A DNA stretch of 64,000 bases from a bacterium (GTDB lineage: Bacteria > SAR324 > NAC60-12): assembly GCA_965205865.1 (NCBI GenBank), contig CBDBHR010000030.1:1088001-1152000 (forward strand). The letters are read 5' to 3'. The notes under the pieces are model-generated. The model had not been told where the DNA came from and searched no databases. It was given only the letters and a program-made list of their open reading frames with translations. The first letter of the stretch is position 1. Each line of letters starts with the position of its first letter. This document shows positions 26,291 to 45,761 of the stretch, piece after piece. A program made the translations under genes and the position numbers.

Positions 26291-27246
26291 CACCCTGTTT
26301 ATCTTGAGCATCCTGGTCTTCCTCTCGGTGCGCTTCATCCCCGGCGACGTCGTAGACGTCATAGAGGGCAGGATGGAATACTCCATTGCGGGTGTGGACC
26401 GTGAAGCCGTCGAGCGTAGGCTGGGACTGGACGTGCCCGTCTACGTGCAGTATGGACGGTGGCTCGGAGGGATTTTCCTGCAGGGGAGCCTCGGGGAATC
26501 ACTGATGGGTCAAGAGGTGGTGGAGGAGAGGATAATCGAGAGACTGCCGGTTACCATTGAGCTCGGTGTCCTGGCAATCGCCATCGGGATCCTCATCGCC
26601 CTTCAGGTGGGCGTCTACTCGGCGATTCGCCAGGATACGGCTGCCGATTACGTGGGGTGATCCGTTGCCATCATCGGCTTGTCCACGCCGAACTTCTGGC
26701 TGGGAATCATGGTCATGATCTACCCGGCATCTGGTGGGGGTGGTCGCCACCGCTGGAGCTGGTCTCTTTCGCGGAAGACCCGCTGGGGAATCTGGCGGTG
26801 TTTTTCATCCCCAGCCTGATTCTGGGGACCTACCTCTCGGCAACCACCATGCGTCTGACCCGCGCGATGATGCTGGAGGTCTTAAGGCAGGACTATATCC
26901 GCACCGCCTGGTCCAAGGGTCTGAAGGAGCGGGTGGTTATTGTCCGACACGCGATCAAGAATGCCCACATTCCGATAGTGACGCGTTCAGCTGGGCTTAT
27001 TGGCCGCGCTGCGGCCGCCCAGCCTCTCTGCGGCATGCAGTTGCCGATCGTGGTGGTGGGCGCCGTGATCATGGAGAACATCTTCAACCTGCCGGGGCTC
27101 GGGCGTCTCTTGCTGAGTGCCCTCAATGACCGAGACTACCCATGGTCTCCGGGGTCAACCTCTTTTTCGCCAGCGGGGTGGTGCTGCTCAATCTCCTCAT
27201 CGACCTGATTTATGCCTTCTTAGACCCCAGAGTGCGGTATGAATAG
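26290..27246 (+). pseudogene. OppB/DppB permease pseudogene (several frameshifts, 42-bp insert)
   Basis: Co-linear with the intact copy at 34114-35070. Confidence 0.85.
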
Positions 27247-28171
27247 TCGTTATGCTTCCGGTAAATATAGCTTTGAGATTCGTCTGTCAGAAGAAGTCCC
27301 TGGGGACGGCCTGCGGGATGATCGTCTTGCTCTTGATTCTGGTGGCGATCTTTGCCGATGTGCTGGCTCCCTATGGCTATACGGAAATGCACCTGAGAGA
27401 CCGGCTGCAGGGTGCATCAGCCCGGTATCTGCTCGGTACCGACCAGTTGGGGCGAAACTTCTTGAGCCGCCTGATCTACGGGGCTCGTCTTTCGTTAATT
27501 GTCGGTTTGGCCGCAACCACGCTCAATGTTCTCGTCGCGCTCCTGATCGGCCGCACGTCCGGATTCCTTGGGGGAAAGTGGACCTGGCGGTGCAGCGCTT
27601 TGTGGATGCCTGCATGGCTTTCCCGGGACTGCTGATCTTGTTAACTGTCATGTCCATCGTGGGCTAAGGTCTCCTCCAGATCATTGTGGTCCCGGGCGTA
27701 TCCGGAGGCATCGGTGGCTCCCGAGTCGTCCGCGGCGCCGTGATCGGTGTCAAAGAGAATGACTATTTTCTGGCAGCCCAGGCCGTGGGCACTCCGACCA
27801 GCCGAATCCTGATCCGCCATGTGCTGCCCAATATCATGGCGCCGATCATCATCATCTTCAGCATCAACATCGGAGGCGTCATCATTGCCGAGGCCTCGTT
27901 GAGCTTCCTCGGATTCGGACTGCCCATCAAGATTCCCAGTTGGGGAGGGATGCTCAGCCGGGAAGGGCTTCAGTACATGGAGATGGCCCCACGGCTGGCG
28001 CTCTGGCCTGGCCTCTGCCTGACGATTGTCGTTTACGCTCTCAACATGTTCGGGGACGCCATGCGGGATCTGCTCGATCCGAGGCTGCGAGGCGGTGAGG
28101 GCAGTTACGGCATTGCGGGGAAACCCAAACGAGGCCTCCTGGCCCGACTGCTCTCCCCTTTCGACCGGTAA
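27239..28171 (+). pseudogene. OppC/DppC permease pseudogene
   Basis: Co-linear with the intact copy at 35063-36007; frameshifts and an in-frame TAA near 27665. Confidence 0.85.
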
Positions 28172-28211
28172 ATGCGCAATCTGAAATAATTTTTGTGAAT
28201 GGAGAATAACC

Positions 28212-28987
28212 TCAAGCAACGGCTTCGACCGCCCTCACCTCAGGGCCGACAAAGACAATCACATAGGCTTTCAGGTTGTCCAACCGTTGCAAAGCCTCAC
28301 TTTGTAAATAGCCCTGTAACTGAATCGTGGCTGCTTGGACGGTGGTTTCCAATTGAGCGCTTTCGCTTTTTTTGAGATACTTCAACTCAAAGGCAAACTG
28401 GTAGTTGGGGAAATAGGGAGGACGGTGAAGAAAGAGGACATCGACATACTTCTGTTCAGTCTCTTGTTCACTCCGGATGTAATAGAGATTGGCCAGACTG
28501 GCAAAGGCAACAAACAAGACTTTGACATATTTTTCGTCGAATTGGATAAAGTAAAGAATTCTTTAAGCGCATCAGACGGATTCTCATAACCTGTGTAATC
28601 TTGACTCATCCCATCATAGCGCTTTTCAAAATCTTTGACTCCTATCAGTACATTTTGCTGAAAACCGCTTTGGGTCGTTTCCGGAGTACTGGTCCCGATG
28701 CGGCTGAAATCGAATTTGAGGACATGATAACTATGAGCACGTGAAGTGGGGTGCGCTCCAATATAGTACTTCCCAAAAAGAGAATCAAACTGTTCCTGGT
28801 GCTCCAGGCCATAGTAATAGCGGAGCATGGAGACAAACAACGTCTTGCCAAAACGCCGGGGACGCAGAAAGAAAATGTAGGGCGCCGGTTCGTTTTCCAA
28901 TTGTTCAATATAGCGCGTCTTATCCACATAAAAATACCCATCTTCAATGAGACGGGCAAAGTTGCTGATGCCATAGGGAAGTTTCAT
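28212..28987 (-). pseudogene. AAA-ATPase-like / PD-(D/E)XK protein, internally deleted
   Basis: MKLPYGISNF...YVDKT...RPRRFGKTL N-terminus joined out of frame to YVDVL...FELKY C-terminus. Confidence 0.8.
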
Positions 28988-29347: not shown

Positions 29348-29479
29348 ATTTAATGAAATCACGGTTCTGTCCTTATGGCGTCAAGGCAACTCGCATCAAA
29401 AACAATGACATTAAACAGGTTGAAAAGTTGATGAGTGCGATTTTTTTTGCGAATCCCACATTTATTTTACACCAGGGGC

Positions 29480-29507
29480 TTGACATTGCGTTGTTGTTTG
29501 CTACAAC
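29480..29507 (+). promoter_or_regulatory. Sigma70-like promoter, homologous to those in the tandem units
   Basis: TTGACA-16 nt-TACAAC preceded by TTTTGCGAATCCC...CAGGGG, as at 31667 and 31936. Confidence 0.55.
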
Positions 29508-29610
29508 CATACCAATACTAAGTTGTTTGTAACTATTTAGGTTTCTTTAGAGCCCCCCTTCGATTTAAGCACGGAATTTGCATAGCATAAAATTCAGGAT
29601 TTAGGATTTT

Positions 29611-31104
29611 ATGCTCTCGAAATTTCAAAAGTATATTAATTCCATTTCATCGACTTCCCTCCTTGAGGCTCTTCAAGAAGCCTGTCAACTCTTTGAAGAA
29701 GAACGGGACCAATGGAAGAAAGAGCGATTAAAACTCCTCGAACGTCTCGAAATAGAAAATAAGCGTATTGAAGCTCTCGAAACAGAAAATAAGCAACTTC
29801 TGGATCAGCTGGCTCTCAACAGCCAAAACTCAAGTAAACCTCCTTCCACCGATCAAAGTCGAAAGAACAAAAGCTTACGTAAAAGCAGGGGTCGCTCTCG
29901 CGGAGGTCAACCCGGTCATCAAGGCCATCATTTGGCTTTCAGTGAATCACCAGATCATGTGGAGCCTCATTTTGTCAACACCTGTGAAACCTGTGGAGAA
30001 GATTTATCCAAGGTGGCGGTTGAGGCCACGCATAAACGTCAGGTGTTCGATCTCCCCTCTCTGCAATTAGAGGTTACTGAACACCAGGTGGAACAAAAAA
30101 TTTGTCCCTGCTGCCGGCATCTGAATCACTCGAGCTTTCCAGCAGGGATAGAGGCGCCCACTCAATATGGTCCCCGGATCAAAGGCTTAGCGGTTTATCT
30201 CAATCAATATCAGTTTCTGCCCTTTGATCGATGCCAGCAATTCTTTGAGGATCTGTTCGGCCAGCCGCTCAATGCGGCCACGATTTATGCCAGCCTCCGG
30301 CAAGCCGCCCATAGGCTTTATCCCTTCCAACAACAAGTGGCTGAAGCTCTGATTCAAGCGGAGGTGGTTCATTTTGATGAAACCTCCCTCTTTGAAAACA
30401 AACAACGTCGCTGGCTTCATTCAGCCTCTACCGAAGAGCTGACCTTTTATTTTATCCACGACAAACGGGGTCAAGCCGGAATGGATGCTGCCGGTATCCT
30501 GCCTCAGTTTGAAAAGACAGCCATTCATGATCACTGGGAGAGCTACCAGCATTATGAGTGTGATCATGGCTTTTGCAATGCGCATCATTTACGTGAACTC
30601 ACTCGGGCCTATCAACAAGAAAAGGCCTTGTGGGCTCAGGAGATGAGCGACTTACTGGTAGAGATCAAAGAGCAAGTAGACCAAGCCAAGTTCAAAGAAC
30701 AATCTGCTTTGAGTCCAATCCAACTCGATCACTTCCGGCAACGCTATCGTGATATCACCCAAGAAGCCCTTAAGCTCTATCCTCCCCCTCCTCAAACAAA
30801 GAAACGAGGACGCCCCAAACAGAGCAAAGCCAAAAATTTACTCGATCGCTTGATCCTCTATGAAAAGGAAACCTTGTTATTCATGGATGACTTCCGGGTT
30901 CCTTTTGACAACAACCAAGCCGAGCGAGATGTGCGCATGGTTAAACTGAAACAAAAAATCTCCGGCGGCTTTCGAACGGCTGAAGGATCTCAGGCTTTTT
31001 GTATCATCCGGGGAGCCATTTCCACTACCAGAAAACAGGGGAAATCCATCCTCGAGTTGCTCACTCAGGCTTTGCATCCTTCACATGCTCCTCCTTGTTA
31101 CTGA
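29611..31104 (+). CDS. IS66 family transposase (TnpC-like)
   Basis: NSQNSSKPPS, GGQPGHQG, zinc finger, HFDET, CNAHHLREL and DNNQAERDVR motifs. Confidence 0.93.
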   Translation: MLSKFQKYINSISSTSLLEALQEACQLFEEERDQWKKERLKLLERLEIENKRIEALETENKQLLDQLALNSQNSSKPPSTDQSRKNKSLRKSRGRSRGGQPGHQGHHLAFSESPDHVEPHFVNTCETCGEDLSKVAVEATHKRQVFDLPSLQLEVTEHQVEQKICPCCRHLNHSSFPAGIEAPTQYGPRIKGLAVYLNQYQFLPFDRCQQFFEDLFGQPLNAATIYASLRQAAHRLYPFQQQVAEALIQAEVVHFDETSLFENKQRRWLHSASTEELTFYFIHDKRGQAGMDAAGILPQFEKTAIHDHWESYQHYECDHGFCNAHHLRELTRAYQQEKALWAQEMSDLLVEIKEQVDQAKFKEQSALSPIQLDHFRQRYRDITQEALKLYPPPPQTKKRGRPKQSKAKNLLDRLILYEKETLLFMDDFRVPFDNNQAERDVRMVKLKQKISGGFRTAEGSQAFCIIRGAISTTRKQGKSILELLTQALHPSHAPPCY

Positions 31105-31112
31105 AACTCTCC

Positions 31113-31312
31113 TTTTTTTAAACGTTCCGCCCCCTGCGTGGCCAAAAGTATTCATAGCAAACATAGCATCGTCAATGCGATTTTGTATGTCGTGAAAACA
31201 AGTTGTCAGTGGAGCATGCTTGCCCATGATTTACCTCCCTGGCAAAGCGTTTACGATCATTATCGCCGTTGGAAAAAACGATGGATTGTGGAGCGAACAT
31301 TCGCTTTTTGGC
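31113..31312 (+). mobile_element. IS5-family transposase remnant, internally deleted
   Basis: NAILYVVKTSCQWSMLAHDLPPWQSVY joined to KRWIVERTFAFW; similar to 45387-45698. Confidence 0.8.
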
Positions 31313-31666
31313 TCATGCCGAAGATGGACCGCAATATATCTTTTTATAGCTGACCTCCATTGTTGCGCAATTCTCCTGATCCAAACTTGCTATAGGCTTT
31401 GCGCCGCGTAGTAGTGCTGAAATCATGCCTTGTTGTTTCAGGGAAGGAGAGGATTTCCGCTCGTTTGATTCAAAATTAGCTGTGGGAGGGTTCCCGCTTG
31501 ATCGATTGAACAATACCCCGGGAGGATGTGAAAACGATGGATCCTTCCCGGGAATCTTTTTTCAATGTTATTGAACTGAACGGCTTCTGACTGTCCCCGG
31601 ATTTGAGCAGATTTATTGATTTTTTATTTTTTTTTGCGAATCCCGCATTTATTTTATGTCAGGGGG

Positions 31667-31694
31667 TTGACATTGTGTTGTTTTGTGTTATAAT
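31667..31694 (+). promoter_or_regulatory. Sigma70 promoter with extended -10
   Basis: TTGACA-16 nt-TATAAT with TGn. Confidence 0.75.
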
Positions 31695-31935
31695 CCTGCC
31701 ATCGCTGAGTTGCTTTGGTGAAAGAGGGTTCCCGATCGATTGAACAAAATCTTGGGAGGGTTCCCGCCCGTTCGATTCAAAATAGGTGCGGGAGGAAGTG
31801 AAGTGATGGATCCTCTTCGGGAATCTTTTTTTACCGATATTGAACTAAACGGCTTCTGACTGTTCCCGGATTTGAGCAGATTTATTGTTTTTTTAAATTT
31901 TTTTGCGAATCCCGAATTTATTTTACATCAGGGGG

Positions 31936-31961
31936 TTGACATTACTTTATTGTGTTATAAT
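31936..31961 (+). promoter_or_regulatory. Sigma70-like promoter with extended -10 (short spacer)
   Basis: TTGACA-14 nt-TATAAT with TGn. Confidence 0.6.
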
Positions 31962-32150
31962 CACGTCTTCGTTAAGTTGTGTTTATGAAAGAAGAGGGTT
32001 TCCGATCGATTGAACAATATCGTGGGAGGACTTGAAAACGATCGATCCTCTCCGGGAATCTTTTTTAACGATATTTAATAAACGGGTTTTTCAGAGACCT
32101 AAATAGTTACGAATCAATAATATGAAATTAATTTTGATAAAGGAGAAATT

Positions 32151-33992
32151 ATGAGACGTCGAATGAATCAAAACCAAAATCTAAACGAAAGAAGAGGAAA
32201 TATGAAAAAAAGAAAATCCAAAAATATCCAATCATTATTCATTATGCTCACCCTCCCTTTGATGGTGGCCGCCCTCGGGGTCAGTTCGGCCCTGGCGGCC
32301 GAGATGGTCAAAGATCCTACAACCGGTAAAATGGTGAGCGCGCCGGAGTTTGGTGGGACCTTAACCTTCGCCGTCAAGCTGGAACCGCCAAGTGCTGATC
32401 CCCTGTTCGGCAGTGGGGCGTCGCGGGGGCCCGATGGCGTTACCGAGAAATTGGGCATGGTCAATTGGGGAATCGACAGGAGCGTGAATGACCTCACCAG
32501 TGCGTCCTTCTACTTGCCTCTGTCTATCCTGACAGGACGCCTGGCGGAAAGCTGGGAAACGCCGGACGCCACCACGATGGTCTTCAACATCCGCCAGGGT
32601 GTTCGCTGGCATGATAAGGCGCCCATGAATGGGAGAGAATTAACCGCGGATGATGTCGTCTATAACTTTCACCGGATGTCAGGAAACGGAAGCGGCTTCA
32701 CCGAACCTCCTGGAGGCTATTCCGGCACAATGGCCACGCTGCCCTTCGCATCGATAACAGCCACCGACAAATACACGGTTGTGATGAAACTAAAACAACC
32801 AACCGTCGGGGCGCTGTCGTCGATTCTCACCGACTGGGCGGTCCATATCATGCCCCCCGAGGTCATCAAGCAACACGGCGACGTGAAGGATTGGCGGAAC
32901 CTGGTTGGCACCGGGCCCTTCATGCTGACGGACTGGGTCGACGGCAGCTCGCAGACCTGGATCAGGAATCCGGACTACTGGGGCTTCGACGAGAAATTCC
33001 CGCAGAACCGCCTGCCCTATTTTGACGGGTTAACCGGTCTGATCATGAAAGAAGACGCCACTATTCTGGCGGCGCTGCGCTCGGGTCAGTTGGATTACGT
33101 CGGTTTGGTTGGCGCCGCCGAAATGATCTATACCGCCCAAAAAGAGAGTCTCGAGCGGACCAACCCCGACATGGCATTCTACCCGTATGGGCTTCGCTCG
33201 GAAAATGCTTTCGCTTTCAACATGGGCGCGGACAATCCGCTCACCAAAGACCTCAGGGTGCGCCAGGCCATGCAGATGGCCCTGGACCTCGAGACAATGA
33301 ACAAGACCTACTTCAAGGGAGTATCCAAGTGGGTACCCATGGGCTTGGTGGGCCCTGCCGTCGGGGGGACGCCCTTTGAAGAGTGGCCCGACGAGGTCAG
33401 GAAAACCTATATGTATGACCCCGAAGGGGCCGAAGCGTTGCTCGACGCGGCTGGATATCCGCGCGGCGCCGACGGCATGAGATTCGAGGTCGCGCTGGAA
33501 CACTACCAGGTCTTCGACGTCGACTATACGCAATTAGCTGTCGCCTACTGGAAGGAGATCGGCGTTGACGTGGAGGTTACCGTAGCGGAACGAAGTGTAC
33601 ACATGGCTCATGTACGCGAACATTCGTACGGAGATATGGCCTCCTGGATTGCTGGCATCGAGTATCTTTCTCCCGTCATCCCGATATCCTGGGGTCACTC
33701 GGAGTCAGCATGGAACCCTCCGAACCTCAACGACCCGGAATTCGACCGCCTGTATGAAGCCGCCCGAGACGCTGCAACCGAGGAGGAGCAGGTGCGGTTG
33801 GCTGCCCTGGCGGACATGTACATGATCGAGAACCACGTGTATGTGTGGGGTCCCACAGACCCCAAGTTCAACGCGGTCCAGCCCTGGCTCAAGGGGTATA
33901 ACGGAGAGGCGATGTTGGGAGGCGATGACCGGGTGGCCCTGTTCTCCCGCCTCTGGTTTGATAATAAGATGAAGCAAGAAATGGGGCAGTAG
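32151..33992 (+). CDS. Peptide/nickel ABC substrate-binding protein (family 5)
   Basis: LAESWETPD, RELTADDVVYNF, GTGPF and DLRVRQAM motifs; RBS AAGGAG (alternative start 32202). Confidence 0.9.
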   Translation: MRRRMNQNQNLNERRGNMKKRKSKNIQSLFIMLTLPLMVAALGVSSALAAEMVKDPTTGKMVSAPEFGGTLTFAVKLEPPSADPLFGSGASRGPDGVTEKLGMVNWGIDRSVNDLTSASFYLPLSILTGRLAESWETPDATTMVFNIRQGVRWHDKAPMNGRELTADDVVYNFHRMSGNGSGFTEPPGGYSGTMATLPFASITATDKYTVVMKLKQPTVGALSSILTDWAVHIMPPEVIKQHGDVKDWRNLVGTGPFMLTDWVDGSSQTWIRNPDYWGFDEKFPQNRLPYFDGLTGLIMKEDATILAALRSGQLDYVGLVGAAEMIYTAQKESLERTNPDMAFYPYGLRSENAFAFNMGADNPLTKDLRVRQAMQMALDLETMNKTYFKGVSKWVPMGLVGPAVGGTPFEEWPDEVRKTYMYDPEGAEALLDAAGYPRGADGMRFEVALEHYQVFDVDYTQLAVAYWKEIGVDVEVTVAERSVHMAHVREHSYGDMASWIAGIEYLSPVIPISWGHSESAWNPPNLNDPEFDRLYEAARDAATEEEQVRLAALADMYMIENHVYVWGPTDPKFNAVQPWLKGYNGEAMLGGDDRVALFSRLWFDNKMKQEMGQ

Positions 33993-45100: not shown

Positions 45101-45761
45101 TAGAAGCCGTTTGGTTAACAAACACGCTTGGCTAAGGTAACTTTGATCATGGCAATACGAATCATATTTTCAGCAGTGTTTGTGAGGGTTCCCACCCGAT
45201 CGATTGGACAATACCGTGGGAGGATTTCAAAAATTGTTTCTTCCATTCTCAGTATTCCCTCTCATACATTTGTGGATCTCTCTAAAACAAATTTTAACAT
45301 GCGTTGATTATACCTTGAATCCATAAGAACGAGCAACCAATTTTCTCTCATTTGGCAGGCCACGAACATGGCATGCTTTCCCCTCTCTATGATAACCGCC
45401 TGTCGGGCCCGGGCCTGCCCTTCTTGGCTTGTTTGAGGCGAGCCCGGACATTCTGGGAATCCAAAACTTGTTGCCAAATCCCTCTTTGACTCCATCGGCG
45501 GTAATGGTCGTAAACGTTTTGCCAGGGAGGAAAATCATGAGGAAGCATTCTCCACTGACAACCCGTTTTCACAACATACAAAATTGCATTGACGATGGTA
45601 TGTTTGTCATAAATACTTTTAGCCCCGCGGGGGTCGGAACGTTTAAAAAAATGTTCAATCTCAGACCATTCTTGATCGCTTAAGTCGCTTGAATACATCG
45701 GTCTCCTTTTGAAAAAATGGAAAATTGACAGACAAGCAATTTATTTACCAAACGGATTCTA
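45101..45761 (-). mobile_element. IS5-family (IS1031-like) element, internally deleted
   Basis: TIRs TAGAAGCCGTTTGGT / ACCAAACGGATTCTA; N-terminus MYSSDLSDQEW...GCQWRMLPHDFPPW; C-terminus TNTAENMIRIAMIKVTLAK. Confidence 0.88.

Follow-up and report, generated by a model that had tools for sequence, protein, structure and literature searches.

The three tandem repeat units at 31396–32110 of the window, by which we mean the entire 64,000-nt stretch of DNA that was analysed, are best explained by mobile DNA nested in mobile DNA, and not by a novel type of RNA array. On balance, we think it probable that they represent a transposable promoter/5′-leader cassette into which a REP-like micro-element moved, followed by local amplification. 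Two kinds of mobile DNA would be nested here, namely a cassette borne by an IS66-family insertion sequence and a REP-like hairpin module within that cassette. Hereafter, G000 denotes the genome of the window and G001 that of a sister species in the same genus.

Inspection of the sequence confirmed the three tandem units, as well as GAGG at all eight positions reported in the first-pass annotation (31449, 31486, 31522, 31724, 31756, 31792, 31994, and 32026). A repeat search of the window returned a module family of 38 nt with 5 copies, and unit-length repeats that are 87% identical and spaced 269–270 nt apart. The module core GATTSAAMAA occurs 9 times in the window versus 2.0 expected, a count reached by 0 of 100 shuffles, and a strict module pattern gives 54 matches genome-wide versus 0 for the reversed control. 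All parts of the array lie on the + strand. Unit 1 (31396..31562) consists of a degenerate promoter, a leader hairpin (31428–31443), modules beta1 (31449–31489) and alpha1 (31486–31525), a closing helix, and a T-run (31557–31562). Unit 2 (31667..31832) consists of a consensus promoter (31667–31694), a leader hairpin (31702–31721), modules alpha2 (31724–31759) and beta2 (31756–31795), a closing helix, and a T-run (31826–31832). Unit 3 (31936..32066) has a promoter with a 14-nt spacer (31936–31961), a leader hairpin (31968–31989), the single module alpha3 (31994–32029), a closing helix, and a T-run (32061–32066), and is followed by a conserved tail (32067..32110) that ends in the right terminal inverted repeat. 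A family-5 solute-binding protein (SBP) gene (32151..33992, +; Pfam SBP_bac_5, 6.5e-65) begins 40 nt past the element end, with permease genes next to it. Additionally, an isolated 36-nt module with its GAGG is located at 45184..45223 (+), antisense within the C-terminal remnant of an IS5-like transposase. Upstream of the element, at 26657–28219, ABC permease genes seem to be divided into several overlapping short ORFs and may be broken.

The promoters and the module order were only partly as first described. Unit 2 indeed carries a promoter (TTGACA-16-TATAAT, 12/12, with TG upstream), while unit 3, which was also credited with one, has the same hexamers separated by a 14-nt spacer and failed the promoter scan. 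Unit 1 had been regarded as promoter-less; it contains a degenerate homologue of the type-B leader (TGAAAT, 31418–31423), truncated on its upstream side by an IS5-like remnant. The order of modules does differ between units, yet the two modules grouped as "beta" are distinct subtypes: beta1 (37 nt) comes first in 21 of the 22 units having it and stands alone in the remaining one, whereas beta2 (36 nt) closes 9 units, opens 2, and is the only module of 1. The order is thus shuffled only in part. The promoter spacer contains GTT/GTA trinucleotide runs of variable copy number among cassettes (31673–31688 versus 31942–31955; L056–L065), and its length is 16 or 14 nt in the window and about 18–24 nt in the sister species; this variation could tune promoter strength. 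A small ORF following GGGAGG (MDPSRESFFNVIELNGF) was rejected as a coding candidate, as the ATG is replaced by ATC or ATT in numerous copies and the reading frame is not the same past the T-run.

An IS66-family insertion sequence of 2582 bp (29529..32110, +) holds the three units as cargo at its right end. Its terminal inverted repeats, GTAACTATTTAGGT, lie at 29529–29542 and 32097–32110, and exactly two occur in the window (29529, +; 32110, −). The transposase gene (29611..31104, +) encodes 497 aa with the domains DDE_Tnp_IS66 (PF03050, 5.6e-47), zf-IS66 (PF13005, 2.5e-08), and DUF6444, and GAGG at 29903–29906 inside this gene is a module site that stands empty. An internally deleted remnant of an IS5-like transposase (31138..31353, +; Pfam DUF4096, 1.6e-15) lies between this gene and the units. 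The insertion sequence interrupts an older, resident cassette in the loop of its leader hairpin; the left part of that cassette (29440..29528, +) is homologous to the unit promoters and leaders and retains TTGACA (29480–29485), TACAAC (29502–29507), and the 5′ half of the leader hairpin. A target-site duplication is absent around this copy; we infer that recombination of the carried units with the resident cassette could account for its loss.

Other copies provide the duplications. The GTAACTATTTAGGT-type terminal repeat has 146 matches genome-wide. Among 62 unit-bearing right ends, 7 have a left-end partner and a perfect 8-bp duplication (element sizes 513–3645 bp), 22, including the window copy, have a left end and no duplication, and 33 have no left end within 6 kb. 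The copy of a relative (L066, 2069 bp) has a transposase of 90% identity, a single unit, and a perfect 8-bp duplication, TCCCAGAC. The element thereby combines the DDE_Tnp_IS66 and zinc-finger domains, terminal inverted repeats, and, at other copies, the 8-bp duplications of the IS66 family, and a gene-less 513-bp copy with both inverted repeats and the duplication CGACGATT has the make-up of a MITE. The unit is thus genuine right-end cargo of the insertion sequence, and it also survives in solo or MITE-like form. Two further observations concern these ends. A 157-bp gene-less element at G000:C23:179451-179594, and at about 12 similar places, shares the terminal repeats of the IS66 element and has 8-bp duplications such as CCTCAAGG, though its interior differs and holds no cassette. 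Right ends are doubled 44 nt apart at 5 loci (on G000:C17, C25, C29 (two), and C30), where a further copy of the element is inserted at the identical point, just past the T-run of the resident cassette; one of these loci has the duplication ATGATATT.

Counting a leader motif followed by a distal motif as one unit, we found 92 cassette units in G000. Their content is one alpha in 52, beta1-alpha in 20, alpha-beta2 in 7, alpha-alpha in 4, and beta-alpha-alpha-alpha in 2, with 1 empty unit and 6 of rarer forms. The leader motif without the terminator motif occurs at 117 further places, of which the 25 inspected look unrelated. The cassette measures 215–270 bp (about 215–230 bp in its minimal form) and is comprised of a sigma-70-type promoter, a 5′ leader hairpin, the purine-rich GAAGGAGAGG, and a composite helix ending in a U-run. 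The sole module-free cassette (L180, G000:C24:101086-101400) precedes an SBP gene, has GGAAGGAGAT where GAGG is expected, and carries an IS66 copy inserted at its left edge.

Next, we considered the folding of the units. In an alignment of 54 distinct single-module units, pairing of the leader hairpin is kept through CACUAA/UUAGUG and CGCUAA/UUAGCG changes. The minimum-free-energy folds agree across the three window units: GGGAAUC and the U-run form pairs with the A-rich leader and with the 5′ arm of whichever module comes first. Specifically, GGGAGGA pairs with UCCUCUC inside the composite helix in units 1 and 3, and in unit 2 the intermodule GGGAGG takes this role. The single variable (Y-R) pair of the closing helix is C-G in 42 cases, U.G in 8, U-A in 3, and C.A in 0. 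The fold z-scores of the window units are unremarkable (−1.1 to −1.8). As to the hairpin and T-run described at each unit end, the T-run is present, whereas the structure before it is not a simple hairpin; in the folds, a 7-bp long-range helix lengthened by A-tract/U-run pairs precedes the U-run. A terminator consensus scan found none at the ends of the three units, and its only + strand prediction in this region is at 31860–31879, between units 2 and 3. The "terminator" at the unit end is hypothetical.

The module itself, 32–37 nt long, has the consensus GAGGGTTCCCACCCGATCGAT..AACAATAC.GTGGGAGG with a GAGG tag on both sides, and neighbouring modules abut without spacers, having the intervening GAGG in common. 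Modules are found singly across the genome as well as in arrays: an nhmmer census in G000 gave 218 matches, 33 of them clearly outside cassettes. Some arrays contain three identical modules in tandem, with variants private to each array, a pattern that points to local tandem duplication. The module hairpins are weak (−7 to −13.5 kcal/mol), and the loop positions UCGAU and AUA are conserved. The compensatory stem changes first reported lack statistical support, since the stems are 90.9% paired, no higher than in shuffles, and a change on both sides appears in only 2 cells; stem covariation beyond sequence conservation was not seen.

A covariance model of the module gave at least 101 matches in G000 and at least 80 in G001. 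At E ≤ 0.01 it matched 0 of 35 other genomes of the same family, and among 24 genomes of the same order or class, 3 had one match each at E = 0.006–0.009, near the cut-off. Around 80 loci of related IS66 transposases, a module match better than E = 0.06 was obtained only at the four nearest. Neither the cross-taxon conservation nor the covarying helices of a conserved cis-regulatory RNA were found for the module. The first-pass annotation recognised no named RNA family, and this held: an Rfam scan of the whole window at the gathering threshold gave 0 matches, and the E-value mode over 31300–32200 returned only chance snoRNA-type matches (E > 3). A literature search, supplementary material aside, gave no description of the cassette or the module.

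The earlier suggestion that GAGG is a hotspot for a site-specific micro-element gained support from pairs of filled and empty sites and from copies within unrelated genes. Both states exist in two transposase genes, Lpd, and AlaRS. The IS5-like transposase tail is filled in 4 of 5 copies and empty in one (G000:C30:770116), the exact difference being 36 nt at a single GAGG, and the four inserts diverge more than their flanks. At the IS66 transposase site, 9 copies in G000 are empty and 7 are filled; since all 7 filled copies are decayed genes, these probably reflect a single insertion event. The Lpd linker is filled in G000 and empty in G001 and G002, and the AlaRS insert is present in both species of the genus and in 0 of 4 other genera. 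These comparisons show, at the level of sequence, that modules insert at GAGG and regenerate it. A precise deletion between GAGG repeats might in principle also leave an empty site, but the AlaRS and Lpd outgroups argue against this. The AlaRS gene of G000 (L152, G000:C27:33423-36263) is longer by about 46 residues at the module site, apparently two module-derived pieces plus other sequence; in the sister species the excess is about 12 residues.

Sense modules also lie within genes for Lhr, an MFS transporter, Lpd, PurL, RecC, RecB, AlaRS, a 5′-nucleotidase, an SNF2 helicase (four copies), and a cupin protein, and antisense modules lie in the Pfam-confirmed DAO, GlgA, and ATE genes. A reading of the in-gene modules as a protein motif was discarded, as they are read in all three frames. 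A bias for the sense orientation was likewise dismissed, because 14:4 is not significant versus the 60:40 expected from open frames. GC skew on the large G000 contigs is weak and noisy.

As for a mobilising enzyme, the first-pass annotation advised a search for a co-occurring recombinase, HUH or nuclease gene. G000 does contain 15 Y1-transposase (PF01797) matches, but none is near any module: 0 of 15 lie within 1.7 kb, the closest is at 1749 nt, and most are beyond 5 kb. Five Y1-transposase homologues of about 335 aa are clustered within 23 kb (G000:C29:722638-745882). The first-pass annotation also saw no partner gene. This stood with respect to the toxin family ToxN (PF13958), which has no match in G000, although the control genomes are silent too; it overlooked the IS66-family element and the abutting SBP genes.

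Cassettes lie in sense orientation directly before SBP genes. Their outward end is 20–45 nt upstream of these genes; most of the 63 right-end matches in G000 have a ribosome-binding site and a long same-strand ORF within 20–45 nt, and of 20 such ORFs that were tested, 18 belong to SBP_bac_5, as does the gene next to the units in the window. The SBP ORFs are intact (about 600–700 aa). The 4.7-Mb G000 has 133 SBP_bac_5 matches, a very large expansion, and cassette motifs occur within 1.1 kb upstream in sense orientation at 47 of the 133 and in antisense at 3, versus a chance expectation of about 1.5% of positions. The right-end motif lies in the upstream zone of 35 SBP matches, which is about 56% against the 63 right ends. 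In a sample of 20 cassette loci from G001, 14 lie within 260 nt of an ORF of 150 aa or longer (10 SBP_bac_5, 1 Peripla_BP_6, 1 SBP_bac_1/8, 1 sigma factor, and 1 aminotransferase), and 12 of the 20 precede SBP genes, which belong to three Pfam families.

Inheritance of the cassette along with duplication of its SBP gene was not supported. On an SBP tree of 119 domains (14 of the 133 rows with stop codons or fewer than 300 aa were left out), cassette presence is scattered, with 33 changes versus 36.3 ± 2.5 in 300 shuffles, 40 of which gave 33 or fewer. Duplication of SBP genes thus does not by itself account for where the cassette is found. A promoter scan between the last unit and the window's SBP gene predicted none, and 20–45 nt is too short for one, from which we infer that transcription of the SBP genes most likely starts in the cassette and reads through the U-run. 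Alternatively, a preference for these insertion sites might be all that lies behind the association, and the cassette would then have no part in regulation.

Cassette-like contigs are present among the assembled contigs of three RNA-library runs and in one other run, all without start, end, or strand information. Contigs from the three RNA-library runs match the SBP gene from exactly 32111 at about 93% identity, with different sequence before it, and this breakpoint fits 32110 as the element boundary in related strains. Several of the RNA runs matching the window are labelled sponge metagenome.

Taken together, we propose the following course of events. The cassette would have spread as the right-end part of an IS66-family element and as solo or MITE-like copies, and would provide a promoter and 5′ leader to SBP genes; antisense cassettes near SBP gene starts would have been lost, because the gene would be severed from any promoter. 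GAGG is the Shine-Dalgarno core. The module inserts at GAGG and, as it ends in GGGAGG, regenerates the target at each insertion, so that the GAGG of the cassette, in the 5′ arm of the distal helix, would accumulate modules, which would then be amplified by local tandem duplication. The 5′ arm of the module, GGUUYCC, may pair either with its own GGGAG or with GGRAAUC just before the U-run, and this alternative pairing is a possible switch between termination and read-through that would set the amount of read-through.

An unlikely, more ambitious form of this idea is a transposable riboregulator with a promoter and a conditional terminator, in which the module is the antiterminator arm, its copy number tunes read-through, and a GAGG-targeting enzyme moves it. 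Spread of the IS66 type before SBP genes would then wire dozens of transporters into one regulon, and the conserved UCGAU...AAUA loop of the module may bind a factor.

The preferred reading, a promoter/leader cassette colonised by a REP-like module, was weighed against readings that give the units less, or a different, role. They may be purely selfish debris, i.e. right ends of the insertion sequence and its derivatives that prefer the starts of highly transcribed SBP genes and whose promoter and hairpins are of no use to the host. This is conceivable, though we doubt it. Units inside elements verified by target duplications, the nested insertions and decayed transposase genes, and the identical insertion point in resident tails at 5 loci are what debris would leave. 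Against it stand the 47 sense versus 3 antisense cassettes upstream of SBP genes, the intact downstream ORFs, the spacing from the start codon that leaves no room for another promoter, and some insertions that appear common to both species. It is improbable that the units are stand-alone small-RNA genes whose repeated GGA hairpins titrate an RNA-binding protein such as CsrA, in the way that CsrB and RsmZ titrate CsrA through repeated GGA hairpins. Every unit has a promoter and a U-run, the module number per unit ranges from 1 to 4 with one GGA per module boundary, and the genome has a CsrA gene; however, most GGA motifs are paired in the folds and lie outside loops, the units directly adjoin SBP genes, the identical module type occurs within coding sequences in both orientations, and the motif is confined to one genus.

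We regard it as very improbable that the module is a riboswitch-like aptamer that binds a ligand or protein and controls SBP operons. Its 3′ arm is common to the distal helix, which makes the two folds mutually exclusive, and the UCGAU and AUA loop positions are conserved, as would suit such a role. The aptamer reading is opposed by the lack of an Rfam match, covariation that does not exceed sequence conservation, absence from the 35 other genomes of the family, the copies inside genes in both orientations, and the weakness of the hairpins. The first-pass annotation raised, as one option, a CRISPR-like or type III antitoxin-like small-RNA cassette, i.e. a processed repeat array. ToxI repeats are also 36 nt, and the 36-nt period, the promoter before, and the U-run after are shared features. 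We give this option next to no credence, as the array has no spacers, the gene after each array encodes an SBP, modules are scattered singly across the genome, and ToxN is without a match (in a search to which the control genomes were equally silent).

If the cassette drives its neighbours, about a third of a transporter gene family with 133 members has received the same promoter and leader from a mobile element, which would be a natural case of regulon building by transposition in a sponge-associated bacterium. With the module, the REP-like repeats gain a GAGG-flanked type whose clean filled and empty sites, along with in-frame copies in AlaRS, RecB, RecC, PurL, and Lpd, can be used for studying repeat movement and protein tolerance. 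For annotation, such arrays should not be labelled small-RNA genes or CRISPR-like loci.

Compared with known systems, the carrier resembles the single-ORF type of the IS66 family, which is defined by IS66 transposase domains, terminal inverted repeats, and 8-bp target duplications. It differs in that the stretch from the transposase gene to the right end holds a promoter/leader cassette, and 76 loci with transposases of 42–51% identity have no module match at E < 0.06. ToxI, the type III antitoxin, consists of ~36-nt direct repeats between a promoter and a terminator, and the modules are likewise ~36-nt direct repeats between a promoter and a U-run; here, however, a toxin gene is missing and the modules are hairpins that also occur singly within genes. 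CRISPR arrays differ in that the present repeats have no unique spacers between them.

The closest parallels of the module are the REPs and RPEs. These are described as GTAG- or CGTC-tagged palindromic repeats that act as insertion-sequence targets, with REPs located inside genes including recBCD-type repair genes, and RPEs likewise in Rickettsia (Di Nocera et al. 2013, PMC3733652). The module is also a 20–40-nt imperfect palindrome in high copy, some copies are in frame within genes including RecB and RecC, and the repeats act as insertion-sequence targets. The module differs in its tag, which is GAGG on both sides instead of GTAG or CGTC, in forming direct tandem arrays rather than inverted dimers, in that many copies are carried inside a promoter cassette, and, relative to REP/RAYT systems, in that no RAYT-type gene is flanked by modules. 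REPINs are described as very small mobile DNA evolving within one genome (Bertels and Rainey 2011, PMC3116915), and to that extent the modules are alike; REPINs, however, are inverted REP doublets tied to RAYT, whereas each module is a lone hairpin, repeated in direct orientation, to which no transposase is linked.

With regard to the cassette, MITEs of the NEMIS/Correia type are small, non-autonomous, foldable elements that lie beside coding sequences and are probably transcribed together with them. The small non-autonomous cassette copies likewise adjoin coding sequences, can fold, and are probably co-transcribed. The cassette also resembles insertion sequences and MITEs whose outward promoter serves the adjacent gene. 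NEMIS and Correia elements are named as background in the REP/RPE source (PMC3733652). The cassette differs from such elements in scale and specificity, being found in sense before 47 of 133 family-5 SBP genes and before other SBP families in the sister species. This specificity for transporter-binding-protein genes is unusual.
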